64,000 nucleotides of DNA, from positions 3,782,001 through 3,846,000 of the forward strand of contig OZ374557.1 of NCBI GenBank assembly GCA_977862235.1, given 5' to 3'. A model generated the notes under the pieces. The model was not told the origin of the DNA, made no database searches, and saw nothing but the letters and a program-made list of their open reading frames with translations. The stretch comes from Dudresnaya verticillata (taxonomy: Eukaryota). Positions 17,592 to 43,069 of the stretch are shown here, in pieces (within the stretch, counting starts at the first letter, position 1; every line of letters begins with the position of its first letter). The position numbers were made by a program, and so were the translations under genes.

Positions 17592-18097
17592 AAGTGCTGA
17601 AACTGCATCAGGTACTGCAGAGTGACACCAACCGCTCTACCTGCGCATGGCTGCCGGTGCGCCTTGCGTCAATCGCTTTTGCGTCGCTGCGCAAACAGCC
17701 CCCGCTATTGCCATTGCAAGCCAAACAACGCAATCCACTCGCACGAAAACAATTTCGCGTGTTATCATTGCCCTCGTATTGGCATTGCAAGGCAAATAAG
17801 AATCACTCGCACAACAACAAGTTCGCGTGTTATCATTGCTCTCGTATTGCCATTGCAAGGCAAATAACAATCACTTGCACAACAACAATTTCGCGTGTTT
17901 TCATTTCCGACGACGCCAACTGCTGAAGTGCTGAAACTTCATCACGTGCTGGACCACGACATCAACCGCTCTAACTTCAAATGGCTTCCGGTGTGCCTTG
18001 CCTCAAACGCTTTTGCAACGCTGACCAAACAAACCTCGCTATTTACATTGCAAGGCAAGAAACGCACATCACTCGCAAAGTGCCAATTTCGCGTCCT
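17592..18097. repeat. Subterminal tandem repeats (three ~68-71-bp units plus a ~170-bp duplication)
   Basis: attgcaaggcaa...cactcgcac...caatttcgcgtg at ~17713, 17784, 17852 and 18048; the aagtgctgaaact block recurs at 17592 and 17926. Confidence 0.85.
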
Positions 18098-18264
18098 AGC
18101 ACTACTGCTCAAGTATAGAAAGTGGTAGTCCTGGACGAACAGGAAAAGAAATCAGTTTCATAGCAGCTCCCAAACACATTACCCTAATCAACTTCACTCT
18201 ATACTTCCCATTCTGACTCAGTAAACTTACACAACCCCCTTTTCTACTCTGTCTATTCCTTGCT

Positions 18265-21200
18265 CTACAGATGGCTGCGGGCGCTACTGTTTGTAAGGCA
18301 CTCGCGCAACTTCTTCCGCACAGAAACTGGTAGCCTGTCATTCCTGGTGAGCGAGTCGAACTCCACAAGTACGCAATCAACGGTGACGTCTTCTTCCCAT
18401 TCCTTTGCGACCCTGCGCCTGGTTTTGTAGAACGAAGGTTTGTAAGCTGCACTGAAAACATTACCGTTGTGCTTGGCTTCATACCACCGCAACAACAATT
18501 TCGAAACCTTTCATCGTCCCCTTTCACAACTTCCATAACTTTTGCCACGTAAAAAGGACATTGCTCGGTTGCCTGAACATAATTGACGGCCGCCATTCTG
18601 TTGTGGCTGTAGGTTAGGTCCTGTGCGGGTAGTTGCTCCACTTCTGGTATCTTCGGAAGCATTTAGGGGCCTCTATGCTGTCTAATGTCCCTTCGCAGCT
18701 TCCCATTCGTCTCCGGGACGTGATCCAAGTCCCAGTGAAAAGGTTCGTTTCGATCTCTATAGACGTGATCCCTAATATTTTCCAGTTCGGCGATCTGCGA
18801 CGCCTTGAGCGCTCGGACTTCGGTGCAACGTATGCGATCATTGACCTCCTTCATATCAGGTGGGCATCGCGCTATGGTCTCTGGGGTCTTAACGAGGTCA
18901 GGGGTGAATCGTATGAAGCCTTCCTGTTTGAGAGATTTGCCACGTGCTTCTGTTACAAGTGGTTTCCAGTCATCTCCACACTGAATCTTGACGAGGCATC
19001 GCGTGCGGAATCTCGCTTTTCTGCCCATTCCCTTACCACTTTGGCGAGTAATACGAAAGAATCTGTAGTGTGAGAATGCTTCAGTCTTGCCAATACACGA
19101 ATACTTGTCACACAGCCGGAAAAGTTGGCTACCTGAAGCAACCTTGCCACCGATGGACGAGGCGTGTATGAAATGCTTAGTTCGCGAAGAAGGCAAGACA
19201 TGGTCGGCATGTCTTTTGATCGGATCCTCTTGCTTGTGCAACTGAAGGCCTGGTCGATGTCGGAATGGGTGTGGCCGATTGGGAGAAAGGAAACCTGCAC
19301 TTCATGCAGAACACCCCACGCGACTAAGCACTCCAGGTAAGAAAGCATGTACTTATTTTTTCTCCCGGGTGTAGTTTTCTAGCTGCAGTAACAGCGTAGG
19401 CTGCAGAGTGCCATGGTTATGCTTGACTGTGAGAAGGCGATGGACTGTTTCGATCATGTGATTCGCGCCGGTCGCAAACTCTCCTGTCATGACGAACAGG
19501 GATAGTTGCTTCAATGAACCGTGTTCCAATGCGCCCACAACTTTGGTTGCTATGGCATGTCCACGCGTAGCCTTCGTGCTGACCACGAACTTTGGTACTC
19601 CGAACGCTTTCTGGTCCGCGCCATCAATTATCAGTGAGCAATACTCGGAGGGATACAAAGTAGCTTTTTTCGTATTCTCCCTGTAGTAAACCCTCCCCTT
19701 TGTAACCAGCTTGTAGTGTTCCTTTATACGGAGCAGGAACGGCTCCGCAAGTCTGCGGCTTGTACCGGCCCTGGTGAGTCCAGCACGAAATTCTTCACAC
19801 TCCGAACACTTTGTGAAGCGTTGGATTTTGCGGACTTTTATGTCACTGCGGTGCTGCTTCCAGACGTGGTAGAAGTAGTTTAGTCGAGGCGGGTCTTTTC
19901 CAGGATACAGTCTCTCGTGGTCCAGAAGGAAGTTCTCGTAGACCGCAGCCTTATCAAAGTACGGCAGATGCTTCTCATCTGCGTCGGGCATGTAGCTTGC
20001 TGTTACCTCAGCGAGGCGGTTGAGGTAACTTAGTATCTTATCCCTGCCCTCACCCGGAGGCGGATACGGCACGGCATTGTCACCCTCCATAGGCCGGCTT
20101 CCACCAAACTGTTTGACTGAATATTGCAGGTCCCTGGAAAACCCAAACGCCGTCTCCAGGAACGTGTAGCATACTGGCTTACCGTCGAATTAATAAATCC
20201 ATCCGGGTCGCTGCAACAACCCGTGCAAATAGTTTCGTCGATCATGGGCGTCCATACGCAACAGTTTGCGAATCTCGGCTTTCATATACACAATCGATAC
20301 CCTCTTCAAGCATTGCTTCCGCATGCAGCACTCCTTGGAGCCCCAGTCCTCTTCATCAAGCCTTTCCAGAGCAGCATTGCGACGCTTTTGCAATACAGTA
20401 TCACCAACCCTCAACTTCTTTCTTTGTCTTGCGTAGAAGCGGTACCTTCTCTTTCGGGAGCCATTGGTCTCATCCTCAGCAACTCTGGGCGTTTTCGGGA
20501 CCCGTTCAGCCTCATATGCTGCCGTGCGTCTTCGTGAAATTGTCGCACTCGGCACGTAATCCGCGTCCTTTGTCAGGTCCTCAATTTCCTGGTCGCTTCC
20601 AGTATCTTCGTCTTCTAATATTCCATCACTTCCACCTTCCACCTCTGCGTCGCTCACCAGATCCAACGTCGCAGCATCTGATTGCTCCTCACCGTGCTCT
20701 ATTTCCGAGCCATCAGCCCCTGGCGTTCGTTCCACGTCACCCTTTGTGTTAGTACTCGCGGCCAACGCCGGGGTAGCATCAGGGTCGGGTTCTGGTGCGC
20801 CACTACTAAAACCCGAACTGCTTTCAGGCGTACGTCTGACATTGTGTACAGGGCATGGATGGGGCGTGATACAGTTCTCTTCGTCGCTTGATCCTTTTCC
20901 TCGAGAAGGAATAGATCCGACAGCCCTAGCAGAGTTTTGTTTCAGATCTGCATCGCCTGTGTCTGTCACGCCTACACGAGGATCTCTCTCTTCCACGGGT
21001 GTAGTCGTGGGTTCAAGAGACACTGGGGCCGAAGAGACTGGTAAGGCGTCCGGGAAGTTATTCTTGGATGGTTTCTGGGGTCGTTCACGCATAGGTGGCC
21101 GGCGTACAGGTGTGTATTGCAGAAGTTTTGTGACATCTTCCTCTTCATTGACTTTCTCTGGCGGTGGTGTTGAAGGTCTGTTCACCGCTGCCATTTCTTC

Positions 21201-21767
21201 AACACGATGCTGCTGTTTTGGGTGAGGAGCGGATTTGCGAACCCTGAACAGAGGGGGTGTTGGTGGGTTAGCGTCAGCCACCGCACGTTTTTCCACTCCG
21301 GAGACAGTCGGACCTGAGCTTTTTCTGCGCTCTGTATTGTAGATGGTTACGAGATCCTCAATCTGGAATAGGTCCCAGGCGTGTTTTCCAGTCTGCATTC
21401 GACTCAGTGTCTCCGGACCCGGACAAGGCGTACTGCCTGGTTTGTACTGGAACGGGTTTTCGTAGGAATTGCAGTTGTGGGGGCATCGGACGAGGTGAAC
21501 TACAACCCATACTTCTCCATCACGTTGTTGAGGTCCAAGGTTGCGCCCGTGCAGGTATGTGCTGAATCGACCACTGGGATCAACGGCACCCTCCCTAAAA
21601 TCATGAGGTCGTAGCAGGGTTGCTGTAGCAACGTGTTCCCCGTTGAGAGTGAGCATGACTCGTGCGCCGGGCTTTGTTCCAGGAAGCAGCTCATCGCCGA
21701 AGTCGTCGTCGTTCTGAACTGGAACGTTTGCTGCTTTCGAAACCTGCCCAGATGAGGCTTGGGCCAT
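18265..21767 (-). pseudogene. Sola-type DDD transposase (~1150 codons, several frameshifts)
   Basis: CCMRKQC; YFYHVWK...RFTKCSEC...H; SLIIDGADQ; LQLENYTRE(N)K; SFLPIGHTHSDIDQAFS; C-terminal FYVAKVMEV...LLRWYE beta-barrel-like module. Confidence 0.85.
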
Positions 21768-22531
21768 GTCCTACTACCCCTTTCGGCAGGGGAGTCTGAG
21801 CCTTTTGCAATTAACTAGTGCAAGATGCGCCTTGCACTCAGGGCGGGCGAAGTAAAGCAACAAAATCGATGTTCCCACTAGGGCGCGATAGCTGTGCGCT
21901 ACTTGTTCTGAAGAGCTGAAATATTCGGGAGGGCCGAGGGCGCTTCTGAAACGACACCGATGTAATACTGTTCCAGAGGCGGTGGGGCGTTCTGCATGAC
22001 AGGCTTGCGTATGCCCAGAGTTGCTACGGATCCCAGTTAAAACGACTGGTATTGGAAGGGCTTCCCTTTCGCTCTGTATGCACCACTCCATTCCGCCATA
22101 CACTATAGCTCCAGTGCGAACAAAACAGTCTGATTCGAAAGACGAGCGTGCCATATTACCAATCAGAACGGACAAGTTGTGAATCTCGAGTCCCCGTCAA
22201 TCAAGAAGCAGTACTCGGTATTGCAAAGGTACGCCCTGCAGACTGCTCTATTCCGCCATGCGACCAAAAGCGGGTAGTATTGATGGGCGTAAAGGATAGG
22301 AAATAGCATCGAGAGGGACTGAGAAGTACAACCCCGGCTGCCGGCTGCGTTGATGTTTACGTCTCGATACCCCGTAATTTTTCTTGCAGAAGAAGGACAA
22401 GTCAATCCAATGAGCAGCCGTGGGCTACAGCTGGCTTTTCACCAGTTTGCGAACATGCACCAACCCGTGCATCAAGTACCAGTCTGCAAATTTGAAGTTC
22501 GCCGTGAGACAAACGTTCCAGACTCTACCTT

Positions 22532-22804
22532 ATGCACAACATGTATCAAGAGTCAAGAGAAGGGAGGCTGCATTCCGCTCAGGAGAGAATAGCTACACTA
22601 CAGGGGGAAATCAGGACCATTCGGGTGACGGTATCGTACTTGTCGCGTGAGCTTCAACGACTAGGGTGGCCAGTTGTGTGTCAAATCAACCGTCTGCTTG
22701 TCTTCATCCAGGAGAAACTTACAGAAGCAAGGGTACATATTGCGGCTTTGCAGCGCCACCTTGCCCGCAGAAACGAGGAGTCTGAAGTCACGGAACAAGC
22801 CTGA
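22532..22804 (+). CDS. Small coiled-coil/helical-hairpin protein of element A (90 aa)
   Basis: Uninterrupted ORF with heptad pattern, divergent from the transposase. Confidence 0.45.
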   Translation: MHNMYQESREGRLHSAQERIATLQGEIRTIRVTVSYLSRELQRLGWPVVCQINRLLVFIQEKLTEARVHIAALQRHLARRNEESEVTEQA

Positions 22805-23073
22805 TGCAAACGGAAGACATAAGTCTCGAAGATGTCGAAGCGCAACTCGTTGAGCTTGAAGAAGAATTCCAGCAACTTAGGAGCGCTCAGGATGAGCTAC
22901 GTCAGCTGGTTGCCCGTCTGCAGCGAGCGACTCTGCGCATGGTTGGCAGTGTCTTCCATCGGGTCCATCGCAGTATAATAGTGGCCTTATCGCAGGCTAC
23001 GTTTGCCCTACAAGCGGTGATGACATCTTTGGAGGCCCAATCCAGCCCACAATCCTCCCGCTCCGAATCCTAG
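22804..23073 (+). CDS. Small coiled-coil protein of element A (89 aa)
   Basis: LEDVEAQLVELEEEFQQLRSAQDELRQL heptads; its ATG overlaps the previous stop (TGATG). Confidence 0.5.
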   Translation: MQTEDISLEDVEAQLVELEEEFQQLRSAQDELRQLVARLQRATLRMVGSVFHRVHRSIIVALSQATFALQAVMTSLEAQSSPQSSRSES

Positions 23074-23399
23074 AAGATCTGTTCCGGAACCTCCATGCCA
23101 CGGTAGCCGCCATTAGTAAAGATTTCTGAGCGCACATCACGACCCGAGCCGTTTCCCGCCCCATCTAGGTTGCCTTCCGCTGGGTCCCTCTACCACACCG
23201 CGGCGGCGCCTTTCTTTCCTCACCGAAGCCGGCGCCCCGTTCTTCTAATTGCAGATTCCCGTACTCGGAGCTTTCCCGACACGCCACGGGAGTTGCCGGA
23301 GTGCAATGAGGCTGAGAAAATTCTCTCTCCCATTGTGTTGAACGAGCCCAGAGGTGAGTATGCCAGTGGTTGAAAAGTATGATACCTTACGATACTATC

Positions 23400-23553
23400 A
23401 AAAGACGCCATCCTTCCTGCGGATGATGGACTCAACAACTCTGCAACAACTCTGCAGAACCGAAAGTGAGATCCCCAATTCGTTGCTTGCCGCAACGCTA
23501 CAGCATTGACGCCTTTGTAAGTCCCGAGGATTCCTTCCCTTCGCAAGATGTCA
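23400..23553 (-). pseudogene. Captured fragment of a mitochondrial carrier (YHM2-like citrate/oxoglutarate carrier)
   Basis: DILRREGILGTYKGVNAVALRQATNWGSHF matches the YHM2-family KGVNAVAxRQxTNWGSRF segment. Confidence 0.75.
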
Positions 23554-24040
23554 CTAGCCAGGTGGGGGCGTGGCTGGGGTTGGCGTAGTGGGCATTTTGG
23601 GGGGTGGTGGAGGGAGGGTTGGCGGTGGCGGCAGCTCCGTGCACAGCTCATATGCGCCCTCGCCCGGTACTTTGAAGCGCATGCGCACCGGGCGCGGCGG
23701 GGAGAGGAGGGCAGACATGGTGGTTTGGAGCAGAGGAGGTTGGGCACGAAGCAGGACATAGAGCAGGAAGGGATGGTATGCGAAGCACGCGAGTAGGCGT
23801 GCGATGCTGCTCGTGTTTCGTTTCGGTGAATGCTCCGGGCTGCGCGGCGAATAACAACTCGAGATTATTCTGTAAGCCGCGATCCACGTCAGGCACTGTA
23901 ATTCCAAGGCGATCCAGCGCTGCGCGTGGACGCGCTGGAACCTCCGCACCCTCCATCAAATCGCCTGCCCAAAGCCGCCCCGCCGACACCATCAGCGTTC
24001 GAGCCTAGCCACACCCCAATCGCCCCGCTGCACATCCACA

Positions 24041-24805
24041 ACGGAGTCGATCATCGCGCTGCAGGGCGGCGACTTCGTTGTTATCGCCGGAGATGTTGCT
24101 AGTGCCGGGTCCCTCGTCGTCATGAAGGAGGACATGGACAAGATCCATCCACTCGACGAGTGCAAACTCTTCGCCGCCGCTGGTGTCCCCGGAGACGTTG
24201 TAGAGTTCACCCAACACGTGTAGAAGGACGTCAGACTGTACAACCTGCGTTCTGGCATCACCATGTCCACCGCTGCTGTCGCAAACTACACGCGCGGCGA
24301 GCTCGCCAAGTTCCTCAGGTACGAACGGGATACTGCGGATGCACATTCGTTTTGCGTGTCCCATTGCGCGAGAAGGTCACCGCTCTAACCTTGCGTCCTG
24401 CTTATGTTTTCCCGTTTGTTGCGAGCAGAAAAGCGCCGTATCAGTGCAATGTCATGATCGTGGGGTACGACGCACCGCCCAACGGCGACGGCCCGTCGCT
24501 GTACTCGTGCGATTACCTCGGTACGCTACATAAGCTCACTTTCGCCGCGGAAGGGTATGCACAGTACTTTGTGTTATCGACGCTTGATCTCATTTGGAAG
24601 AAGAATATGACTTTGGACGATGAGCTAGTGGTCATTCGTAAGTGCATCGCTGAGGTCCAGAAGCGTCTCGTCATCAACCAGCCCCGCTTTTGTATCAAAG
24701 TTGTCGGCAAGGACGGCGTCAAGTTCATAGACTCTGCAAAGCTTCCGGGCCTGAAGGCGGATGAATCGATGACTGATGCCCCGCAGACCGCAGCCCAGGC
24801 TGCAA
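24041..24805 (+). pseudogene. PSMB2: Captured, near-complete 20S proteasome beta-4 subunit gene with intron (start ATG>ACG, internal TAG)
   Basis: ESIIALQGGDFVVIAGD...MKEDMDKI...ANYTRGELAKFLR | GT-AG intron 24319-24428 with CTAAC branch site | KAPYQCNVMIVGYD...GPSLYSCDYLGT...KCIAEVQKRLVINQPRFCIKVVGKDG. Confidence 0.92.
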
Positions 24806-25149
24806 GAGCAAAACATCCCGCGTTCCCGACAGCGTTGTCCTGTGTCTGGTTTCGTCGATGTACATCAATTCGGAACAGTAAAGCCAGCGCGCCCGCTATG
24901 TCTACACACAATTGATCTTGTTTTATTAACTTTCGTCTTATGGATCTATGTGCACTTTTCTAGATTACATTCACTCGACAAGAAACCCTCCTACGCTCTT
25001 CCGCTCTTCTGTCCTCATTCTAGCCTTTGGTACGTCTGTTTATTTTCTCAGCCAACCGTGTTGCGAAAACGATGGGAGCAATCTGGTTGGGAACCTTATC
25101 CTGCCAAACACACGAGAACACACCCGCCGTGAGAACCTCGAATACTGTA

Positions 25150-25590
25150 CTGCCTCACCGTTGATCCTTGCCGACTTTCGACATCGAGGGGACGTTGAAT
25201 TCGTCAACAGCCACTGCTCCAGGCAAGTCGAGTGATAAGAATGTCCACATGCAAGCCGCCGCAGCATGTCCCCTTCCTCAAAGCTACACAAGCACACCGA
25301 GCAGCACACATCGCCGGTCGCCCCCAACTCGGCCATTTCACCCTTCGTGAAGACAAAGGAGGGAAACATGGCGTTCAAATCCGTTTCTGAAAGCTTGTCC
25401 CGGTAAGCAGAGCCGCTTCCGGCCTCCTCTGGCGGGTGGCCGTGAACAACTTCAAAAGAATTGCCGTCGGAACACGCTTGCCCACACACTGACGAACACG
25501 ACGACGGTGAGCAAGGTCAGCGTGATCAGCAGGAACGGTAGCAATAGAAAAGTAACACCTATCTCCCATTGCTCCTGGTCACTGCGAGGC
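25150..25590 (-). pseudogene. Captured TM + RING-H2 E3 ligase fragment (ATL-like)
   Basis: CSVCLCSFEEGDMLRRLACGHSYHSTCLEQWL...SPRCR, with a hydrophobic segment upstream. Confidence 0.8.
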
Positions 25591-25829
25591 GTACAGTATC
25601 GCAGCTTCTTCTTCGCGAGCAAGCTTTCCGTGGCGCGGTCTTGAAAGCGCTCCATACGGCGATCAACGCATGGGAATACCTCCATTCGAACCCTAACAGA
25701 GAATTGTGGCGACGAAAAGCCGCCCTGACCAAAGTGCGGTCGCTGGCGCATCAACCACAGAGGCGGCAATCGATGAAAGTTGTATACTCCTATGTAGAGC
25801 ACCTCGCCCTCGACCAGACGTGTTCGCAC

Positions 25830-25935
25830 AACTTTCTGCACCAGATCGAAACCAGATCATCTTCACCGCCCGTGGCGATATGATTTCCATCCGGACTGCA
25901 CACAACGCATAAAAAGGCCCCAAAATAGCTTCGGG
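25830..25935 (-). pseudogene. Captured WD40 fragment (WDR20/CreC-like)
   Basis: [30 protein letters not shown] matches the WDR20/CreC [27 protein letters not shown] repeat. Confidence 0.75.
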
Positions 25936-26936
25936 GGCGTGGTGCGGCAGTGCGACAGGAAGCACAGTAGTTGTGCGGGTCGGCGGGGTGCGGTGGGGCG
26001 CGACCTGGCGCCAGTCGCGGGGGGTGGGCGGGAGAGGGTTGTAGCGAAACGCGGCGGTTCGGTTGCGATTGCGTTTGGGAGGGCGCTGGGCAACAACCGG
26101 ACTGGTGGAGGGACCCAGGTGTTCCGAAAGAAAAGTCCGAGAAGGGAATCAGCGATAAATCTCGTGGAAAAAATCCTGGAGAGTTATGCCGCGCGACCTG
26201 AAAAGCTATCTTGCATTCTCCATAATATGGAATAGGTCCTGGGGTCGAGCTAACGTAGTTTCTATCAAAAAGGTGTTGGGCCCGAGGCAATCGCAAAACC
26301 TATAACAGTTTTTCGACCAGTGAGAATCAAAAAGTTATTAAACAGCACACGAGCACTCGCGTTTCGGAAAACCTATCATAGGTTTTCAGATCTCGTACAG
26401 TGTACGTGCTGTTTAATAGAAATTTACGTGCGGCTTTCCGAAATGCTGTTGGTCATTCTCCATAATATTGGATAGGTTTTTACGCGATTGCAGTAATTTC
26501 GGCACTGCGGGCACTCGTCCCGCGATGAGACGCAAGTGTATTGCTCGAGTGCACCTACCTGCAAATCGAAGCTCTCGATATTCTCATAGTACTGTGACCC
26601 GACCCGCCTCGCTACTACTACTCTACCGGGGCCGTGGATGCATCATTCCTGTAGATGCATGTTGGCAGATCTTCCATGCCGCTCGACATTCATCCCATGC
26701 TCTGCAAGAGCTACAATTCGATGGAACTCTGCAGATCCGACATTGTGAAAGAGAAGTTGCTGCGGAAATGGGACCGAGCGATGATGCAAATTTTGCGCTG
26801 TGGACTTCTACCGGGATAGCGCTGTCGGTGGCAGTACATGGTCTCCAAAGAGGAGTAGCATGTGATTATGGCTTACGATGTTGCTCTATGGCGTAGGAAA
26901 CTAGTGAAGCGAACGATTATTATGCTCAACTCTGCT

Positions 26937-29881
26937 TTACCCTCCTTTCTGGTCGCACCGCTCCTGGGCTTTCATCGCATGGATATCCCATGCAAAAAAG
27001 CCGTCTAGCTCACTTAGAATCGTGGAAGGGCGGCCGTTCGGGACATGAAAGTTGTACGTATATGCTGAGGTGGCAAAGGATGAATCAAATTCGAAAGCGT
27101 ACACCGCAATGAGTTCCTGTCCTGGCTTTTCGTATTCTGACAGGGGTTTCAGATGAATCTGCTTGCGAACGTTCTCATCAGAACTTGCCCTGAATTGGAC
27201 TTTTGCCTTCCCAACAGCTTTCTTCCCAACGTACAGAACAACTGCATCTCCACCTGTAATACAATCCGAATTTTTCTTCGCCTCATTCCTGAGCAGTTTC
27301 TGTTGCGGGGTTTCCACATCCGCTCCCTGGTCTTCTCCCAGGGCCTCTTCCGCTGTACCATGGCACAGTGGTGTTCCTTCCATTCCTTCCGACAACTTGC
27401 GATGATCACTTGCTATCCTTTTCAGGGGTGCAACTGCAAGCTTGTATGTCTGTAGGCTCTGCTCTATACAGGTGCATTTCCTACCAGTCTGCACGGCTGC
27501 AATTGCAGCTGTCATCGTTCCAGCATACATGTCCAAAATGGCCCCCTCAGGGCAGAAGGTCGTCAACAATTCTACCAACAGCTGAACATTCCTCTCCTCA
27601 GTAAGCACCGGGGATTTTGTACCCAGTTTAAGGAGCTTCTTCTTAGAAACGTTAATTTGAGACATGCACGCAAACGTTCTCTTTTCCGAAACCTTCACTG
27701 ATTGATATGGGCTTCGAATATCCACTTTAAATCCGTTGGGGTGTTGTCCTGGGGCTCTTCCCATGACGGCAATTTCGTGGCCATTTTGGGGACAGTCATT
27801 TCCTCGCCTCTCCTGCACCGTGTCTGTATCTTTGCAATCGAAAAGGCGTACGTTGGGCAAGTGAATCCGGCCTTCAGAAGAGCCTGCCTTATAGGTTCGA
27901 ATGTCTGGTAGGACACGAACATGAACACCCACCCTCCCGGTACAACGGATTCCCTGCACATTTCTGCAAGCTCGGATATTTCAGAATCACTCATATAGTT
28001 GTCGTACTGTTTCCCTGCACCAGACTGTGATGCAGGCGTTCCATACGGTGTGTCGGTAAGAACTATGTCGTATAGGTCACCAACACCCTCGCGAATATTC
28101 TTATTGTATACCTGCCACCGCATCTGATGGCAGTTTATTCTGTACGACTTCAATATATCAGCTTGCAAATGGTCGTCAGATCCGTTCTTGTCCCCACGTA
28201 CAGCCAGCCTCTCTGATTTTTCCTTGCTCACCGTCACAGCAGATTTTACGGCCGATCCCTGCATATCTTCTGCATCATGATTGTGATGGTCTCCGATAGA
28301 ACCGAGGTCTCGAATGCAAGGTAACGAATCTACGTTCACAGAAGGAGAGGGAACGTCATCGTGTTCGATCTGTCCGTCAGAGGGATGGTCCTTGTTTCCA
28401 GCAGTTGTTACCTGATCGGAATTGACCCCCCCTGAATCTTGCACTCCAGTCGTAATCTCATTCACACACTCCCGGTCTAAATTCTTCTCTTCATCGCACT
28501 CCTTTCTGTTCCTATCTCTAACAGAATGGTACTTGTGAATCTTCAGGGGTGCTTCTTCCGGACAACAGTCCTTGTACATATCCAGAATGCATTGCAAAAT
28601 CAATGTGTCGTTGCCCCTGTTAAGCATGATATCGCCATCAAACTTTTGGGATCGCAGACGATTTGTCCGCATCGTTTCCATGGGACCCGGTCAGTCCTCA
28701 GATTCACGAAGGCCTTCGAATTTGCGAACCTCTGCTAGCGCATCTTTAGCCTTCCCGAACTCTGATTTGGTGACCCCGTAAAGAACGGGCCTGAACCCGT
28801 TCCTCCTGCATACTTCTCGAATGCGGTAGAGTGTCGAGACCTGGACTTCCACACCCTCATCATGTACCACGCCACTCATTTGGCCCGCGCGCATGAACTC
28901 TGTGGCAGCCTTCAGTGAGTTCAGAGTAATAAACGTCCGGAAAACCCGGCAGTCCATCGACGACATCAGGGCATGGTCTGCTACTTATTTAGCAGTTCTT
29001 CCACTTCGTGAAGCCAATGCAAGCTGCGGTATTTCTTCCCCCATTATCTACCCTATCGCATCGATGACACGATGACTTAGTTGGAAAGCTACTTGCGCTG
29101 TCTGCCTCACTGTGTTCTCGTGCATATGAACACCCCCATCGTAAGCTGACGCAACCGCTTTTGCTGTCGGCTTGATACCATTTCCCTCCGCTTGAAGGCG
29201 ATCAGACTCATCTTTCAGACCCTTCAATGTGTTATACAGGGTAGTTTCCGCGAAGCCGTTTGCCTCGTGCGTACGATTCTGATGTCTAGCGAATTGCTTC
29301 AGGACCACCAGGTCGGTCCGCGGGTTCAGATCCAGCTCCAGCACAGGCAAGTCAAAGGTTTTCCACTGGTTGTAGTTTTCTTCAAGCAGTTCACGAATAG
29401 CTGCCAATCTATGCATGCCATCAACTACTCCGTACCATTTCCCCCCCGATTTCACAATGTCCTGAACTTCTTTCTCAGAACGACACGTACAGTCCTTCCT
29501 TGTTTGTGACCTGAAGTAATCGGACACACGGCTTCTCAATGCCCCTGTCAATGGCACAATGACAGGCATATCACTACCAGCCACGTAACCGATAGAGTCC
29601 GGAGCTCCTTCCACGGGAGACTTCAATGTCCCTGAACTGTACCGGTCGGTCCCCCGGAAAATGCGCTTCAATCGCTCGAAGCCCGATCTGCAGATCGGGC
29701 GGACGTAGGTCAACGGGACACATGAACGAGGGTCGACTCGCCTGTGCGTAGCTCCATTAACGACATCTCCGAACAGAACTCTATCATTCCCAGGTGATAC
29801 AGGCGCTCTTACGTCTGATGAGGTCTGGCCTGTGTTAGATACAGACCTCACCGCCACTCCCTTCTTCTTTTTCGGTGGCAT
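26937..29881 (-). pseudogene. ParB/Srx-like domain fused to a beta-class N6-adenine/N4-cytosine DNA methyltransferase plus C-terminal transposase-associated module (~980 codons; 3 nonsense codons, 1 frameshift)
   Basis: WYGVVDGMHRLAAIREL (ParB DGxHR); DIVLTDTPYG (motif IV, DPPY-like) precedes EERNVQLLVELL...ILDMYAGTMTAAIAAVQTGRKCTCIE (motifs X-I-II). ORFs 29048-29881, 28691-28966 and 27695-28681 share one frame. Confidence 0.88.
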
Positions 29882-30079: not shown

Positions 30080-30356
30080 TGTAGAGAGTTGTTAGAAACA
30101 GAACAAGCCGATAGCTTCAATCCGTGAACTTGAAGCAGAACAAGCCGATAGCTTTAAGCCGTGAACAGTAGTGTTTAATTTTGAATGTTGCGTGGTTCAA
30201 GCCAGCCGTTCTGGATTGGCCGTGAACCGCTTTGTGCTCTCGAGATGAGCAGCAATACAGTAGTAGATAAAGGCTCTCTCTCCTCCGAGGGAAAGAGGAG
30301 AGAGGCAAGACTTTTGAACAACAGAGTTGGAGTGCTAGGACGAGCCGGAGTTTACA
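30080..30356 (+). repeat. Gypsy-D 5' LTR (277 bp)
   Basis: Near-identical to 39302-39579 (about six differences by eye). Confidence 0.95.
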
Positions 30357-31786
30357 GAAACCATAGAGCATATTGATGGGGAGCGTAATATCCTTGCAGA
30401 TTTAATGACACGGTGGTACGCAGGTTACCGTGGAAAACATAAGATGGCTCGAAGAGTTACAAGTCTGTTGACTGAGGAGGACCTGGTCAGGTCCCCTTAC
30501 GACAAAGATTTTGTTGGACCTTCTTTAGAAATGGTACGGGAATCTCAAGGCCGTGCAGAGCAGGTCCAGCGTCCTAATGACCTATCGTACAATCAAGATG
30601 ATGAAATGTGGCGAAAAAAGACCGCCTATGGATTCCATCGTCGGATATTGAACTACAGATGAAACTACTAGTCCTTGCACACTGTGGCTCTGCAGGACAT
30701 CGCGGAGTTGATTCAACAGCGAGTATTCTGAAGGAGCAGTATATCTGGGAGTCCATGGATGACGATGTCCATGAGTTCGTTTCTAATTGTTTACATTGTA
30801 TTATTGCGAAGAGTGGTCATCGTATACCGAGACCAATTTCACTTACCCTTCATGCTACTGCTCCAAATGACGTCGTGCACTTCGATTTCCTCTTCATGGG
30901 TATCGGGGCCAATGGGCTTTTCTACGTGCTGCTCACACGAGATGACTTATCGTCGTATCTTTGGCTTTGCCCAAGTACTGCTGCCAACTCGCGTGTTGTA
31001 GCAGAGAACCTGTCCAAGTGGATTCGAGTATTTACAGCTATGGGATATTGGGTGAGCGACCAAGGTTCGCACTTTAAGAATCAAGTAATGGAGGAATTGG
31101 CAAAAACCTACAGGATTAAGCATCAGTTTACTGTAGCATACTCACCGTGGGTGAATGGTACGGTCGAGGTGTGCATGCGGCACGTCCGGGCTGCCTGCAC
31201 TGCACTTTTATCCGAGCTGCAGTTAGGACCTCAAGACTGGCCCCTTGTGATTGACATGGTTATGTCAGCCTTGAATGAGGCGCCGCTAAAAAGGTTGGGG
31301 AAACGTTCCGATGGTACTTACCGTACCCCTCTTGAAGTCATGACGGGAATCAGACCTCGACGGGAAAACTTTATCATGCAGCCTAGTACAGTTCACGAGC
31401 CTGTTGAGATTGATGCAGTACGAGTATGACAACTTATCAAGATTGATCAGTTGCAACAGGCTCTAGAGTTGATGCATAAGGATGTTTCGTCTCGCGTGGA
31501 AGCAAATAGAATGAAGCATGTACAGGATCACAACAAACGCACAAACCTGGTGAGTCCCAACTTCGAAATTGGTGACTTTGTGGTTGTCCGTCGAGCTCAA
31601 GATCGTGGGCATAAGTTAAAGTTCAGATGGATTGGCCCCCGTCGTGTCTCCCGGACTATTGGTGATACTGTTTATGAAGTCTCTGGTCTAGTTGATGGCA
31701 AACTTGAAATCGTCCATGCCTCTAGGATGCAACTTTATCGCGCAAAATTGGACGGTGCTGAGGTTTCTAGGAAACTACTTCGTCAA
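30357..31786 (+). pseudogene. Gypsy-D RNase H end and integrase
   Basis: AHCGSAGHRG...CLHC; HFDF, SDQGSHF, NGTVE; RWIGPRRV (GPY/F-like). Confidence 0.92.
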
Positions 31787-32271
31787 AACACCCATTTAAG
31801 CCATTCCAGAATCTGACTTTGAAAACAGACTGAAGTCAAGTAGCTATTTTCTGATATTGTTGGAGAGGTAAGCGTCCCCTGAGTACGATGGTGAAATCCG
31901 ATTGGCCAACAGACCATTTGTTCCAAAGTTATGGCGGTTTGCGTGAATTTACACAAAATATTTCCAGGTGTTCCGAAATTTAATTTCTTTGCATCGATTT
32001 GGCCCGCCCGGGCCACTCCGTGGTCCGGACTGGGCCAAATTGGTCCGCCCGGTCCCCACCTGCCCCATGCGCTCCCCCCCACTCCCTGATGCCACGGCAC
32101 GCCCCCCCATGGCACACAATGCCCCGATTGTACCGCGCCGCCCCGCGCAAAGCCGCGCAGATGCGTGCGCGAGCCTGTTTCCACAGCCGCTACTCTGCCG
32201 CGCCACGCCTTCTCACCGCACCTACTGTACTGTCCTGTGCGCGTCCGTACGGGAACGCATACATATCGCTG

Positions 32272-33800
32272 TCACCGCGTTCTCAAGCTGCAGCTTTCAT
32301 GTACAGATGTGCGCCTGACCCAACAACCGTCTTTGGCCGCAGCCAAACTCGCCGCCGCTTCGTCTGCAGAAGCACAGTCCACTGCAACGTCGGCGACATC
32401 CGTAGCAGCTGCCACTCCAGCATTAGTTACGATAGTGTCGGTTGTAGTAGTGGTCATAGGTTTACCTGCTGCAGCTTCAAGCACAGCAGCATCGCCCTCT
32501 CCAATGCGCAATTCAGCAACAGTGTGTGCAGTATCGCGTTCAGTTGCCTTATCCACTGCAACTTGAGTTCCAGAATCATTATCCTCAGAACTGGCGGTGT
32601 TCGTCGTATCAGCTACGTTCTGCACAACATCAATAGGAAAAACTTCATCCACAACTGGTTCTTCCGGAGAGGCGTCATCAGCGCTGGACTCCCTCGCAAT
32701 AACTACCTCCGTAGCGCTTTCGTCCTCTGCATATTCACCCACTGCGACTGCATCCTCATCGCCTGTATCAGCAATTACTTCGCCAGCAGAGGCCCCATCT
32801 GCAGTACAGGTATCCACAACAGAAGCACCAACAGAAGCAGTCTCCTCAATATTGTCGATCGACTCGCCTTTGTGAATATTCTCATCGTCCGCAGAAATTG
32901 CTGGCAATGAAACGTCGAGAATAGCACTATCCCTCGCAAAAGAGATTTTCGCAGCAGCTTCAGCACAACTCACCTCCTCATCTAGTGCATCCACAGTATT
33001 ATCTGCTGAAAGAGAAGTAGTATCTCCACCACCAGCAACGACACCTTCAGGAGTTAGTTCTGTACCAGCAGTGTCTGTAGGAACATCTTCTACACGATCT
33101 TCAATTGCTAGAGGGTTATCGTCATCAAATTGACCCGCAAGAGTGCCATCGGCGGTTTCGCCACCGTGAAAACGGTCATTCACTTGAGTATCTTCCAGAG
33201 GAGCGCTTTCAGATAGAGCGCTTTCAGCAGGAAGGACAACCGGGAGAGGCCCCCAACCAGGATCTTCTTCCACAGGAAAAGCGCCGCTCAAAAGACTGCC
33301 ATCCTCAGGAATATCTTCTGCACAATTGTCCTCTCCAAAATAGTGTCTTCTGCAGTGGCTTCATCGAGTATAGGGTCTTCTGTAGTAGCCTCTTCCACAT
33401 AAGCTATTCCTGCAATTACCTATTCTTCAGCAGTCTCATGCATTACGATGTGTTCTGCAGCCGCATCTTCTACAATAGCGATTTCCACGATTGCATCTTC
33501 TACAATACTGATATCCACGATTGCCTCTTCTTCATAAGCATCGCCCACTTTGGCGTGTTCTGCAGCAGCATTGAAAACAATAGCGTCTTCTGGAGCAATA
33601 TTATCAACAATAGGGTCTTCTTCTGCAACGTCATCAAACATAGTTTCCTCTAAAGAAGCGTTCATAACAATAGTGTCTCCTGCAGCAGTATCGCCCACAA
33701 CAGCATTTTCTCTTGTAGTGTCATCAAATGTCGAGTCTTCTATCGAAACATAGAATCGAGCAGCGTCTGCTGCAACAGCAGCGTCGACAATATCGCCTCC
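32272..33800 (-). pseudogene. Acidic Ala/Asp/Glu-rich low-complexity protein fragment
   Basis: Long EDA/AAE-rich frames 33420-33986 and 32272-33291 with internal pseudo-repeats. Confidence 0.5.
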
Positions 33801-34299
33801 TGCGCCAGTGTTAGGCAATACGTTTACAGGGAGGTACAAAAAAGCAAAAGTCACCAAAGGTGTCGACCAAACCATTCCATGGAGAGATAAAGTCCCTGAA
33901 AGCTCCGTACTGGTCGAGTTCGCTCGTTTAACAAATGGTGGGATCCCGGTGATTGTGCAACGGAAAATTAGGGGAGCCCTGGACATGCGATCGGAAAATA
34001 TCGCGTAGGGACCACAAAGCCTTGCGAGGGGCTATCGGTTGCGCGAAATGATGCCATGGGACGATTGATAGTGAATAAATATGTTTAGGAGTTGAGTTTG
34101 AGCCACACGTAGTAGCGCCCAGGAGTCTGAGACCGGTTCGTGCGCTGCTATAGATACGAAGTGAAATGCAAGAACTCGCATCCTGCGCTCACCGTGAGAC
34201 ACCCCATCTTGATGAAAACCTTTACGTCCTGTCCAACATTCGCGACAATTTGGTCATTAGCAGGAATATAACAAACAGCAGTGGTTTGGGCCCTTGCCG

Positions 34300-34790
34300 T
34301 TGAAGTGCAGGTCCAAGCAAACATGAGCCCCGAGTAGTCTGACGAGTAGACCTTATCTGCCACGTTGGCAATGCCGACACTCTGCTTTGCGTGGCCGCGC
34401 ATGACGGTCTTGCGCTCTCCATCGGCTCCAGTGATAAATATTTCAGAATGCAGCGAGGCGAACACTACTTCGCCAGTGTTGCGGGCAATCGTGCAGCCCA
34501 CCTGCATGTTCATGACATTAGAGCCGAAGGTGACAGTGGATACGCACTCGCCGTCTGGCGTGCTCCACATGCGGGTAGTTTTGTCATTCGACGAGTACAG
34601 CAGTTTGGAGCCGTCATCCGCCCAACACAGGCCAGTGACAGATGCAGTGTGCCCCTTGAAAGTGGCGATAACGTCCGCCTTGGCAACGTCGACAATGCTA
34701 ATGGACCTATCCGAGGACGCAATGGCGAGCTTGGAGCTGCCCGGGGAGAAGCAGACATAGTTGGGCAAGGGCTTGGGTGAGTCAATCTCC
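34300..34790 (-). pseudogene. Captured WD40 fragment, AIP1/WDR1-like
   Basis: GHTASVTGLCWADDGSKLLYSSNDKTTRMW...VMNMQVGC...MRGHAKQ...VYSSDYSG; the MQVGC segment is typical of AIP1. Confidence 0.75.
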
Positions 34791-35389
34791 TGAACGGGGG
34801 AACGGGGGGTTGCGGCGGCGGAGAGGGACGTGCAAAGCAGGATATGGTAGTACGAAGAGGTGGGCCAGACCCTGTGCAACACATTGAGATCAGTAGCAAA
34901 CCAGGACGCAGATCTGGAAGAGCTATAAACGAATATAGATATCGGCCAATAGATGTTGAGATGCGCCAAATAAAACATCTATTTTCATAGGTTTTTGATT
35001 TGCGACTCCGCCGGAGCTACATAGCTCCCCATTTAGTCAGAATGAAAAACCTAAAAAAGTAGATATTTGCCTGGAGGTAATCTCGTTAGCTACATAGCTA
35101 TTCAGGAAGCGGAATCGTGAAACCTAAGAAAATAGCTTTTCGATCTGGGCGTCGCCGAGGAGCTATTAGAAATATCCATATTCGTCGATAGCTCCCACGC
35201 ACGAGAAACGAATTAGCTACTGCCTCACACTAGTACTCGAGGTGTCTCTCTGCTCAACAACCGCCTCTGCATGCGGGTTGGACACCCTAATTCCCGTACT
35301 ATTCCTCGCACTATTCCTCGCCTTCATGCTGTTTGGGTCGGTCTACATGCTTCAACACCTTCACCTCGTTCGGCCCGGCCATCGCCGCC

Positions 35390-35730
35390 TCGGAGCCGCT
35401 TGCTGAAGCGGCCGCAGTCCCGCTGGCAGCCCTCCGCCGCGACTTGGTCGCGCTGCTCGGCTTGCTGGATGAGACGATCGGCGACCTTCACATTACCCTC
35501 GTGCAGCGCCGCAAGTCTGCTGCTAGGACGTCTGCGCTGCGCACGTTGCTCGACGCGAATGATCTGCTCCTGAAATGCGAGAGACTGCTCAAGGAGTACT
35601 CCGAGTCCGCTTCCACGCCGTCCGCGGTTGGGCTGATGTTCGTCGAGCGAATTGCTGGTGAAAGTTCCCAACTATCGTTCAGGCTAAGCAAAGCTATCGA
35701 TGGCGCGTTTTTCAAGAATCTCTCGCCGTT
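35390..35730 (+). pseudogene. Captured fragment, COG2-like (conserved oligomeric Golgi subunit 2)
   Basis: VPLAALRRDL...LLKCERLL...FVERIAGESSQLSF resembles the COG2 LERIAxExxxLxF segment. Confidence 0.55.
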
Positions 35731-35959
35731 TACTGATACCAGACTGCGGATGACGCCGATGCTCGCAGTCGCGGGGAGAAGCATTAAGAATGGAAACCTC
35801 AAGGCAAGACGAAAGGCCGCAGCAAGCGACTCTGCCACCGCGGATTCTGCCAAGACTACTGCGAGTATTTCCGCTACTGCTGCTGATGCTCTGCAAGCTG
35901 CAGAGGGTGAGGGGTTGCATCCCACGGGCCCAGTCTCGGCAACGGTCCAAGGTGCAACC

Positions 35960-36870
35960 ATGCCCGGCACAATTGTCCTCGAGTACTTTCGCCAGATAGA
36001 GAGCGAAAACCTAGCGTGGGTGCGCGAGCTATCTCGTCTGCTTCCTGACTTTAAGGTCGGGGAATGGCGCGCTGGCAAGACCGTAATTGATCCAAACGAA
36101 GAGCTGTGGCGCCAAGTCAAGTATCTTGTAATCTGGCACATGCCAGTACCTCAAATGTTGAGCCTACCCAACCAACACGCCATTCACCTTGTAGGAAGCA
36201 GAGCCGCCCACCTTGCTCTGCATCAAATCCCGGAGCACATAACTATTGTTCGCCTGGTAGATCCTGATGTTGCTAGAGACATGGCAGCCTATGTCATGCA
36301 CTGGGTTATTCAACTTCAAATTGGCTTGGGAGAATACCTCACGTTCCAGCAATAAAAGCGATGGCAGAAACTAGCGTTCATCCCTCGGTATAGGCTTGCA
36401 GTTGGCGTCATGGGCTTTGACACCGTCGGCTCTACCGTCGGCAAGGCCGCAGCGGCAATGGAATATCCAGTATCCGCTTGGAGTCGGAACGGCGTCGCAA
36501 CAGAAGTTGTGCAAGCCTTCGCTGAGTAGCAGGCGACTTTCTGAGCTGCGTCAACGCGCTTTTTAACGTGCTCCTGTTGAGGCCAGAGACCGAGAATATG
36601 CTCGATACAAGTTTCTTCGAGAAGCTCCCTCGTGGGGCTGCCGTAATTAGCATTGGGTGCGGTGCCACCATCAATGAAGAAGACTTGCTTCAAGCTCTAG
36701 ATAATGGCCACCATCGTGCGTTTGTGGTGGATACGTTTCGCGAAGAACCTTTGCCCGCTTCATCCCCACTATGGTGTTACGAAAACATCCTCATAACTCC
36801 TCACGTCGCGGGCCGCACGTTCGCAGAGTCATCTGGTAGTGCAAATGCCCCACGTTGCAGATCAAAGTAA
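35960..36870 (+). pseudogene. Captured D-isomer 2-hydroxyacid dehydrogenase (glyoxylate/hydroxypyruvate reductase A-like), with stops
   Basis: IVRLVDPDVARDMAAYVMHWV...VGVMGFDTVG...KLPRGAAVISIGCG...DTFREEPLPASSPLWCYENILITPHVAG. Confidence 0.85.
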
Positions 36871-37088
36871 GATATATCCCCTCATTGGTGTCTATTGAAA
36901 TGCATGCCGTACGAACACAAGTGGACCGTCAAAGAACTCCGCGTCTCGAGCCGAAATTATGAAGAGAGGCTCGTCTATTTTCATTACTGCGTACTTCACC
37001 CCTTAACACCATAGTAGATTCCCTCGCAGCTAACGCAAGCTCGCATCAGTGCAAGCAGAGCTTCCACATCATCGGGTCTATCAAAACA

Positions 37089-37424
37089 ATGTCTTCGGGC
37101 CTTGGTTCAGCTCCCGCGGACATGCAAGCTGCTTTTGGAAAGTTTCACAAGCACGTCAGAGCGCAGCTGAAATTCAGACTAAACGATCGCTCGAGGAGGC
37201 TTCGGAGTGAGTATTTGCAGTTTCCACGGCGGGTAATGGACGCTTTGGGAGTCCGTGAGAGCGAAACACTCATGAATGGAAGTCGAAATAGCGAGTTGAA
37301 CCATGTTCTATCGCAACACGAGCATGACTGCAAGATTCTGGATGCCGTGTACAGGACCGGGATGAGGCAACTAGAACGGCAAGCGCGCCCGTTCGCGACC
37401 TGGAGAGAATGTGCCGTTTATTAG
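37089..37424 (+). CDS. Hypothetical 111-aa protein in element B
   Basis: Uninterrupted ATG ORF with helical, protein-like composition; no family recognised. Confidence 0.35.
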   Translation: MSSGLGSAPADMQAAFGKFHKHVRAQLKFRLNDRSRRLRSEYLQFPRRVMDALGVRESETLMNGSRNSELNHVLSQHEHDCKILDAVYRTGMRQLERQARPFATWRECAVY

Positions 37425-37451
37425 TCACATGGCATTATGCCAAGGAAAATA

Positions 37452-37918
37452 TGGAAGGTTCGGAGGAGGTCAGGAGGGCGAGGGCCGAGCAAGCTAAACA
37501 TAGCATCAGCGTCTTGTATGCCACGGCGTTCTTTGATGAGTCAGGATAAATCATGCTGGTATTTTCTATACTCAGTGCAGACAATGTATCGGTGTCGAGG
37601 TCTATATGAAGGACACCGCGGACCCCAACGGTGATGCACGGTGACAAAATGCTACCTTCCGACACAGCTCCCAAAAGGCTTGTAGAAGAACTCAGGGAGC
37701 TCCGCGCTGAAATCATCGAGGCGCGTGGAGTTGCCCTGGCTGAGCTGGATACCACTTTTTGGCTCCGGGTCCCGCTCATGGGATGGGCACGTGAAATGAT
37801 GGCGAGGGCTGGCCAGATTGGAGAAGGGGTGATGAGGGGAGCTCGGGGTGTGTTAGGGTTGCTGGGCTGGGAGGTCCCGTTGGAGTGGACGCTGGAAGAT
37901 CCTGAATCAGAGGCATGA
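37452..37918 (+). pseudogene. Hypothetical helical protein with two in-frame stops
   Basis: MEGSEEVRRARAEQ... continues in one frame into RLVEELRELRAEIIEARG... Confidence 0.35.
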
Positions 37919-39016
37919 GTGGGTTTGGATGTAAAGGGTAATTAACGAAACCTTCCTTGTGGTGTTCAACGCGTGCATACACTGGTCGCATATAGTGGTA
38001 TCATGAATCATTTTAGCAGTAGAGTACAGTCGTGCCCACAAGCCCTTCACCGCCTTTCCCTGCCGTGAGCTTACCGAGTTAACAACATTTCGCACTGCCG
38101 TCTTGTCTGACGCCGACTGCTAGGCCCTACAACCCGCCTTCGCTCACGGTACCACACGTGGCTTGTCACGCGTTCCGCCCCCTGTCGCATCTTTGGGAAG
38201 CCCCTGGAAATCACTAAGGCCGCAGGAGTAGTTGCGCAGGTACTGAGCTAGATGTGGAGGCGGTTGTTGGTTCAGGCGCGCATCTGTACAGCTTGAGAAC
38301 GAGAAAACGGTGAAGATTGGCGATGCTGGGATAACCGCAGTGGGATAAGAGCGCGGTACAGATTCGGGGGTGCCAATCGAGCTGTGCACCACTGCGAAGT
38401 CAAAATTCAGCAGTGGCATGGGAAGTGGGGTCGGTAGCGGGGATCAGGGTGTGCGCGCTGGTGGGCATCCGCGGTAGTAGGGCTGTCCCTGGTCATAAAT
38501 CTCGCGGGGCAGGTGCGGGAAACGGGCGACGAGGCAGTCTGTATGCGTTCCCGTACAGACGCGCACAGAACAGTACAGCAGGTGCGCTGGGAAGGCGTGG
38601 CGCGGCAGAGTAGGGGCTGTGGAAACAGGCTCGCGCACGCCTCTGCGAGGCTTTGCGCGGGGCGGCACGGTACAATCGGGGCATTGTGTGCCATGGGGGG
38701 GCGTGCCGTGGCATCAGGGAGTGGGGGGCGAGCGCATGGGGCAGGTGGGGACCGGGTGGACCAATTTGGCCCAGACCGGACCACACAGTGGTCCGGGCGG
38801 GCCAAATCGATGCAAAAAATTAAATTTCGGAAAACCTGGAAATATTTTGTGGAAATTCACGCAAACCGCTATAACTTTGGAACAAATGGTCTGTTGACCA
38901 ATCGGATTTCACCATCGTACTCAGGGCACGCTCCCCTTTCCAACGATACCATAAAATAGCTACTTGACTCCAGTCTGTTTTCAAAGTCAGATTCTGGAAT
39001 GGCTTAAATGGGTGTT

Positions 39017-39260
39017 TCAAGCAGAACACATCGAGTCTAAATTTGAGATGGTTGAGAAACTACTGGACATCGGAGAGGCGGATGATGGTCTGTTTGTGCA
39101 GGTACAATGGCTTGGTCAGCCAGATAAGGTTGACTGGACATGGCAGTCGATTGCACAGCTGTATGAAGACGTCCCTGAAAAATTATAGGCATTTTTGCGC
39201 AAGACGCGAAAAGGAAAGCTCGCCAAGAAAGCACGAGCTGCACTACATCTCTCTGAAGAG
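39017..39260 (+). pseudogene. Gypsy-D chromodomain-like C-terminus
   Basis: FEMVEKLLDI...LFVQVQWLGQPDKVDWTWQSIAQLYEDVP. Confidence 0.85.
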
Positions 39261-39301
39261 TAATGCACACGCCGAAATACTCCAGCGTATGCATGGGGCC
39301 G

Positions 39302-39579
39302 TGTAGAGAGTTGTTAGAAACAGAACAAGCCGATAGATTCAAGCCGTGAACTTGAAGCAGAACAAGCCGATAGCTTTAAGCCGTGAACAGTAGTGTTTAA
39401 TTTTGAATGTTGCGTGGTTCAAGCCAGACGTTCTGGATTGGCCGTGAACCGCTTTGTGCTCTCGAGATGAGCAGCAATACAGTAGTAGATAAAAACTCTC
39501 TCTCCTCCGAGGGAAAGAGGAGAGAGGCAAGACTTTGTGAACAACAGAGTTGGAGTGCTAGGACGAGCCGGAGTTTACA
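39302..39579 (+). repeat. Gypsy-D 3' LTR
   Basis: Direct repeat of 30080-30356, preceded by ATGGGGCCG and followed by TSD ATCC. Confidence 0.95.
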
Positions 39580-42876: not shown

Positions 42877-43069
42877 TGAGAATGTCAAGGGATAGCAGTG
42901 AATAGATAGAGTAGAAAACGGGGTTGAGTAAATTTACTGAGGCTGATGAACTCTTTTTTGAACGCACTTCCCGCTTGGCAAGCGGGAGGGTGGAAAATGG
43001 CTATGTTACAGCAATACGGAACCGCGAGGAAGACGGACGTAGATGGTGTCGTGTTGGGAGGAGGAGGTG

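Follow-up and report, generated by a model that had tools for sequence, protein, structure and literature searches.

The ParB-methylase pseudogene and its predicted fold

The stretch of DNA analysed here, which we call the window, covers 64,000 nucleotides of Dudresnaya verticillata contig OZ374557.1 (positions 3,782,001 to 3,846,000 of the forward strand, GenBank assembly GCA_977862235.1) and contains, within a 28.7 kb Sola1-type DNA transposon termed element A, a pseudogene joining a ParB-like region to a beta-class amino-methyltransferase (26937–29881, minus strand). Read from its ATG at 29881 to the stop codon at 26937–26939, the intronless gene comprises ~980 codons (981 positions in the read-through), interrupted by in-frame stops at 29048–29050, 28985–28987 and 28691–28693 and by one frameshift near 27833 (about 27830–27836), where the alignment to an intact relative changes frame, leaving the first at 27830 and resuming in a second at 27833. 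An earlier reading of the letters alone, here the sequence-only reading, had proposed a single dead gene of this length with three stops and one frameshift, and the mapped lesions agree with it; the motifs that it quoted are likewise all present in the order given, namely GVVDGMHRLAA (DGMHR, 29408–29422), TDTPY (DTPY, 28043–28054) and LDMYAGT...AA...GR...IE (DMYAGT, 27516–27533). The N-terminus is basic (PPKKKKG), which we take to be a likely nuclear signal.

A HMMER scan of the last pseudogene piece against 1.84 billion representatives (E ≤ 0.001) returned 209 clusters at 50% identity; among the best 150 of these, one (P0052) is false and 50 have at least 700 residues, with the N-terminal 683 residues of the window gene alignable to 48 of the 50. 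A word-index search of longer proteins with the window pieces gave no match, whereas the full HMMER scan did find relatives. Intact relatives collinear with the pseudogene measure 850–1100 residues. Because the whole pseudogene is collinear with one of them, the 1003-residue protein P0159 (E-values 1e-134, 1e-41 and 7e-20), and its read-through is 37–42% identical to its 14 best relatives, we read 29881→26937 as a single decayed gene, with similarity far above chance, and not as an accidental run of frames.

Fold evidence comes from a predicted model of P0159, built on 47 sequences (mean predicted local distance difference test score 79.5) and mapped onto the window. The methyltransferase domain (27396–28147, minus strand), in which motif IV (DTPY) precedes motif I (DMYAGT), corresponds to P0159 residues 535–790, which match CcrM (Z 23.4, root-mean-square deviation (rmsd) 3.1, 228 residues aligned), M1.HpyAVI and M.BceJIV (both Z 22.6); searched by sequence, the family profile also ranks M1.HpyAVI, M.BceJIV and CcrM first. 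S-adenosylmethionine (SAM)-site residues are kept in nearly all full-length members (D742 in 46/47, G746 in 42/47). With motif IV preceding motif I in a modelled Rossmann-type fold, the pseudogene is best described as having encoded a beta-class amino-methyltransferase, as the sequence-only reading had it.

The N-terminal domain (29261–29779, minus strand; P0159 residues 7–169) is predicted to adopt the ParB/sulfiredoxin (Srx) fold, its matches being PadC (Z 9.9, rmsd 2.8, 97 residues aligned), Pnob8 ParB-N (8.5), KorB (8.1) and Srx (8.1 and 6.7). Eight of the 50 rows of the fold search begin at model residues 1–14 and all are of ParB/Srx type, several with Z below 8; the lower ones (Z 7.5, 6.3 and 6.0) are placed in this superfamily on our own assumption. 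Residues R30 (46/47 full-length members), G120 (46/47), N165 (41/47) and T177 (45/47) are conserved and, with D/E180, presumably fall on ParB motifs, where they would fit a predicted CTP/ATP binding and parS-type recognition. At the level of sequence profiles, no PF02195 or other Pfam ParB match was obtained with the pseudogene pieces, and a search of PDB sequences with the family N-terminal profile brought up no ParB; weak matches were to DndB (E 0.05 for the window, 0.0005 for the relative P0029), DGQHR (E 0.017–0.069) and phage ParB-like profiles (E 0.015–0.029). The ParB/Srx assignment of the sequence-only reading thus stands on the structure model, and of the two profile hits that it had expected, N6_N4_Mtase (PF01555) is reached by 37 of 46 long relatives, the window pieces staying below the gathering score of 26.7 (separately, 19 bits over profile positions 166–219 and 12 bits over 2–70), while ParBc (PF02195) is reached by none of the pieces.

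Downstream of the ParB domain, a block of three helices (29033–29188, minus strand; P0159 model helices 178–195, 203–211 and 220–230, placed by alignment) may represent a helix-turn-helix (HTH) of the kind found in ParB, a likeness that we presume. A helical block of ~250 residues and a long linker separate the ParB and methylase domains, and the protein would have ended in a small beta-rich domain (26973–27284, minus strand; P0159 residues 900–997, well predicted) found in 16 of the 47 relatives of full length. Among the 46 long relatives, Pfam detected neither SET nor 2OG, and the window pieces gave no SET match.

In a language-model atlas, the nearest named cluster to the intact relative is fungal DUF3723 (score 0.95, 179/256 features), which for the window piece ranks tenth behind unnamed clusters (0.94). 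Pfam PF12520 (DUF3723) has no match in the family, and a literature keyword search, itself weak evidence of absence, returned nothing pairing DUF3723 with ParB; we treat this kinship as a lead, a resemblance without an alignment.

Element A and its transposase

Element A spans 16879–45572 (28,694 bp, including nested insertions) within a Gypsy pol gene. It is flanked by the target-site duplication (TSD) CACA (16875–16878, plus strand, and 45573–45576) and bounded by terminal inverted repeats (TIRs), the left (16879–17274, plus strand) starting AACACAG, with gapped similarity to about 17410, and the right (45175–45572, minus strand) 83% identical to it over 399 bp in a self-comparison of the window. 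The RT_RNaseH_2 Pfam profile is split by the element, with positions 1–44 on the right side and 44–99 on the left, and once the element is excised in silico, the Gypsy RT/RNaseH frame is open again and aligns with a paralogous copy (71% over 167 bp, one gap). Since the profile breaks and resumes at position 44 and the rejoined flanks match a paralogue, the 28.7 kb occupy one insertion site.

A Sola-type DDE transposase pseudogene (DUF7869; 18663–21770, minus strand) lies near the left end, broken by a stop at 20190–20192 and by frameshifts near 19358 and 19100. Together with the TIRs, the CACA on both sides and the restored Gypsy frame, it upholds the placement of the methylase gene inside a TSD-bounded Sola-type element. 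Its skeleton DGADQ..LDNC..NKN..GHTHEDVD, read by eye against a Sola2 alignment, parallels but differs from it. In a single comparison, the AACAC..GTGTT ends of element A, with ~400 bp of imperfect TIR, resemble those of Ectocarpus Sola1-1_Ec32 (AACCG..CGGTT, 282 bp imperfect); Sola2-1_Ec32, with GGCGG ends and a 26 bp TIR, is unlike element A.

The pairing of transposase and ParB-methylase gene recurs outside the window. A metagenome scan yielded 23 loci, six of them true members of the ParB-methylase family, and at one of these, L004, on an independent contig, the family gene and a DUF7869 transposase (E 5e-46) are arranged head-to-head, ~2 kb apart, the transposase core being 42–46% identical to that of the window. 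The L004 ParB-methylase-like gene belongs to a degenerate clade lacking DPP[YF], far from the window gene, so that the pairing, seen at two loci, spans the family. We consider it very likely that the gene is a transposon accessory gene. Linkage to a transposase is seen only in the window and at this one of six family loci, the other five having less than 1.7 kb of upstream flank, and the window gene lies on the same strand as its transposase, 5.2 kb off across host cargo, unlike at L004 and in Ectocarpus; both points weigh against the reading developed below, as do several given there.

That cargo (23220–25860, between transposase and methylase gene) consists of captured, decayed host-gene fragments: a mitochondrial carrier (minus strand), a proteasome beta subunit that retains an intron, has lost its ATG and carries a stop (plus strand), and a RING finger (minus strand). 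Element A also holds nested elements. An internally deleted Gypsy long terminal repeat (LTR) element (30080–39579, plus strand; 278-bp LTRs 97.8% identical, TSD ATCC) was inserted later, 200 bp upstream of the start codon of the methylase gene, and in it is nested element B (31786–39017), a non-autonomous Pack-type element with AACAC ends, 479-bp TIRs (94%) and TSD TCAA, 4 bp long like that of element A. Element B, in which fragments of WD40 and of 2-hydroxyacid dehydrogenase occur together with an acidic frame of 30-bp repeats, was likely mobilised in trans by a Sola transposase.

These captures and nests could mean that the methylase gene is itself a passenger, picked up like the host fragments or brought in by a fused second element, without a working tie to this family of transposases. 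Its orientation, as noted, differs from that at L004 and in Ectocarpus. The stretch at 25930–26277, GC-rich and then AT-rich, finishes with GTGTT, as an AACAC terminus would, and has a 15-mer in common with the element B TIR; it is a possible relic end, in which case element A would be composite. Accessory genes are also described as shifting between transposon families in the available part of the Bostrychia paper (bioRxiv 10.1101/2025.02.11.637652). We nevertheless find a passenger origin improbable, given that the gene is full-length, that a separate TIR pair flanking it was sought and none found, and that the same pairing with a transposase occurs at L004 and in print.

Other features of element A include a subterminal tandem array of three 68 bp units (17698–17905) and a long interspersed nuclear element (LINE) fragment at about 43000–44990. 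A further 53-bp inverted match well inward of the TIRs (18212–18264 against 42894–42946) suggests that the TIR arms were formerly longer, the right arm being split by the LINE fragment. Four frames (40028–40675, 41621–42055, 42475–42876 and 22508–23070) have no convincing Pfam match (for two, NCBIfam and PHROGs were also searched) and are possibly remains of further accessory genes. Genes of the window are intron-poor, and its GC content is about 54%, features that, taken with the literature, point to a red-algal host.

Elsewhere in the window, telomere-like TTTTAGGG-type repeats meet head-to-head at a 34-bp near-perfect palindrome (13601–13700), which looks like the scar of an internal telomere fusion. 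A further element (51052–56977) has inverted ends, short and imperfect, near AACACTT, together with an inner inverted repeat of 776 bp (97%, 52193–54372), and part of it is copied at 2188–2705.

State of the catalytic motif and proposed function

Motif IV of the window gene is DTPY, the T being encoded by ACA, and has no intact [DNS]PP[YFW]. In a quick tree, in which two family rows shortened by the domain cut were counted as 'other', the gene falls into a starred clade of nine rows, of which the other eight all carry DPPY; a tree of the N-terminal half gives it the same neighbours. Bacterial N6-adenine enzymes are marked by DPPY and N4-cytosine enzymes by SPPY, according to the available text of PMC8885841. 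Since its nearest relatives carry DPPY, DTPY is best read as a decayed DPPY, as the sequence-only reading had suggested, which would favour N6-adenine as the target, albeit unproven. Intact DPPY members exist (P0159, P0011, P0178, P0181 and P0212), and the 90% identity cluster of P0159 contains 19 members, in intact and variously split forms that are 98–100% identical among the 13 compared, a pattern that fits the one expected of a young multi-copy element.

Searches for a prokaryotic or viral source returned no sequence, phage included, matching beyond the methylase domain (the GTDB scan being partial). Viral contig scans gave three generic methylase loci and then 0/1 and 0/51 candidates; GTDB scans gave 0/34 and, in a second scan that covered 9 of 64 parts, 189 confirmed loci, of which the 79 retained were 21–28% identical and in the methylase part only. 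No non-family locus matched the family ParB profile better than E 0.014, and none of 152 phage records covered 80% of the protein. In the tree, the 11 prokaryotic rows fall together on one side (support 88; a quick search, with two shortened family rows misplaced). As matches in those scans are confined to the methylase domain, no prokaryotic donor can be named.

A candidate binding site lies beside the gene, where a cluster of AAAASCTAW half-sites (26201–26480) includes a perfect 21-bp palindrome (26367–26387). The palindrome and half-sites, 450–750 bp past the 3' end of the methylase gene, account for five of the nine motif matches in the window, three more being in element B. At L004, two perfect palindromes occur in the intergenic stretch, a number reached in 0 of 60 shuffles. 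We also observed that the L004 segment 3501–3676, between the ParB-methylase-like gene and the transposase, holds several palindromes, among them three copies, alternating, of a 27-bp unit, and that a second AAAASCTAW cluster (34920–35220) sits in a 72% inverted repeat within element B. Both clusters are directly upstream of captured host fragments, so that they may originate from promoters or miniature inverted-repeat transposable elements.

With little more than even confidence in the whole chain, we incline to the reading that a giant cut-and-paste transposon of Sola1 type carried this now dead gene as an accessory, and that the gene's product would have been a self-targeted DNA adenine methylase. 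The intact protein would be a nuclear, SAM-dependent enzyme steered to its own element by the ParB-type domain: the HTH after this domain would bind palindromic sites within the element, the ParB domain would load or spread there, perhaps via a nucleotide switch, and the DPPY domain would write N6-methyladenine (6mA) nearby, which may sustain transcription of the element or keep its ends prepared for the transposase. For the subclade of the window gene, an active methylase favouring adenine is a probable assignment in its own right. Besides the linkage and orientation of the gene, this reading has to contend with a palindrome motif that was chosen post hoc, is absent from the TIRs and is accompanied by ten other perfect palindromes of its class in the window, with split forms in the P0159 cluster that could be assembly errors or one species resampled, with fold scores that fail to separate 6mA from N4-methylcytosine (4mC) enzymes (bdelloid N4CMT Z 19.4, PvuII 19.2), and with the state of motif IV across the family.

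Among 47 full-length members, motif IV is DPP[YF] in 14, SPPY in none and eroded in 33, the clade of the L004 gene included. This weakens a 6mA- or 4mC-writing role for the family as a whole, and, given such frequent loss, many of its genes probably encode no enzymes. The main rival to a 6mA writer is that the principal job is non-catalytic, the ParB-HTH half binding, coating or clamping the element, for example to join ends 15–30 kb apart or to shield it from silencing, with the methylase as a dispensable or SAM/DNA-binding passenger. The 33 losses occur in long open frames in which the ParB residues, D742 and G746 persist, and the N-terminal-half tree shows eight changes of the motif IV label, at least five of them forced by starred branches (the decay of the window gene counted); moreover, the transposase-linked L004 gene is itself of the degenerate clade, Plavaka PAG3 is a ParB-like gene without a methylase, and the N-terminus resembles Starship DUF3723. 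Set against this, the window gene's own clade retains DPPY across proteins that are only 40–50% identical, and a larger share of DPP[YF] members (10/14) than of the others (7/33) has the complete DGxHR motif, counts that are not phylogenetically independent but indicate that the ParB and methylase domains tend to erode together. On balance, we regard a purely non-catalytic role as unlikely here, without dismissing it.

The same design could instead have written 4mC, or modified RNA. Fold scores of 4mC enzymes come close to those of 6mA enzymes, and the top viral fold matches are annotated by automatic names as cytosine-N4-specific. Some DPP[YF] enzymes, such as M.BamHI, produce 4mC. The lack of SPPY in all 47 full-length members and the N6-adenine specificity of the best sequence and fold matches make this variant quite unlikely.

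More speculatively, unrelated giant transposons (Sola, Plavaka and, via DUF3723, Starships) might share a bacterial-derived module of self-recognition, composed of ParB and palindromes, which in this Sola lineage would guide a 6mA writer onto its own DNA and would several times have turned into a pseudo-enzyme under selection; we hold this broader idea to be doubtful. For the adenine-methylase reading, the dead copy points to intact DPPY relatives and a candidate palindrome, making the idea of self-marking directly testable. If it is true, a transposon writes 6mA in a eukaryotic nucleus, and some algal 6mA would come from transposons and not from host enzymes.

Comparison with known systems

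The CcrM-type enzymes of PF01555 (CcrM, M.BceJIV, M1.HpyAVI and RsrI) resemble the family in fold (Z 19.5–23.4), in the order of motif IV and then motif I, and in the DPPY of close relatives, but are only 15–21% identical in fold alignments; the family differs in 530 fused N-terminal residues, a motif I of the form DxYxGT and the loss of motif IV in many members. Another beta-class enzyme, the bdelloid N4CMT, is reportedly a chromodomain-fused host gene and no transposon accessory gene. According to the available text of PMC8885841, it is likewise a bacterial-type beta-class amino-methylase in a eukaryote, but has an SPPY motif and a 4mC product. Phage and prophage fusions of ParB and amino-methylase (ParB-terminase loci, partial text of PMC4738411) likewise place ParB ahead of the methylase, and such proteins are among the viral fold matches; in the scans described above, no phage, viral or prokaryotic sequence matched our family beyond the methylase domain, and the family carries the ~250-residue helical block and long linker.

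Among eukaryotic transposons, the sequence-only reading had taken methyltransferases to be known mainly from retroelements. DNA-transposon amino-methylases are also published: the Plavaka elements of red algae (Bostrychia and others) carry PAG2, with PF01555 and SET, and PAG3, with ParB and a 2OG oxygenase, as well as inverted-repeat arrays by the ParB gene (bioRxiv 10.1101/2025.02.11.637652, in the part available). Like element A, these are giant algal DNA transposons with a PF01555 methylase and a ParB-like domain; unlike it, they place the domains on two genes beside an EnSpm/Plavaka transposase, and neither SET nor 2OG gives a Pfam match in our 46 long relatives. Giant multi-gene EnSpm elements in Chondrus (PMC6431247) and methylase-bearing Mariner elements in algal viruses (PMC3627910) have also been described, as far as the available texts of these papers go, and the Auxenochlorella preprint does not mention ParB. 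DUF3723 is a conserved auxiliary gene of Starships (bioRxiv 10.1101/2021.12.13.472469, in part); it is thus, like our gene, a conserved gene of a giant eukaryotic transposon and resembles its N-terminus in the language model, but Starships are fungal, tyrosine-recombinase elements.

The closest parallel is the 21.5 kb Ectocarpus element Sola1-1_Ec32, which in the accessible sections of PMC12477816 carries, on the strand opposite to the transposase, a gene for a 1104-residue protein with ParB-like and N4/N6 methyltransferase domains. Such a gene, which the sequence-only reading did not know to be described for Sola-type transposons, had therefore already been published for one. The supplement lists AACCG ends, imperfect TIRs of 282 bp and a TSD of 4 bp with a bias towards a final A. 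The paper notes that giant elements often contain nested insertions and dead transposases, cites Iyer et al. 2011 and Petroll et al., and suggests that there are accessory proteins which, as a class, bind the transposon encoding them and modify it; for algal DNA transposons, such binding and chemical marking of their own DNA is there a proposal only. Supplemental Table 6 of the Petroll preprint on the Plavaka elements may already list elements like element A. Both elements are giant Solas (21.5 against 28.7 kb with nests) whose termini start with AAC, whose TIRs are long and imperfect and whose 4-bp TSD ends in A, and both carry a single gene for a protein of ~1000–1100 residues that joins ParB-like and N4/N6 methyltransferase domains. 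They differ in their ends (AACCG there, AACAC here), in the orientation of the gene (the same strand as the transposase here) and in host; the window gene, an intronless dead copy in an intron-poor genome, is likened to the Ectocarpus protein by description. The window gene is thus a dead further member of a published type of transposon accessory gene, ParB plus N4/N6-methylase, to which our analysis adds a large family with intact DPPY members, repeated loss of the catalytic motif, a resemblance to DUF3723 and, next to the gene, a cluster of palindromes.

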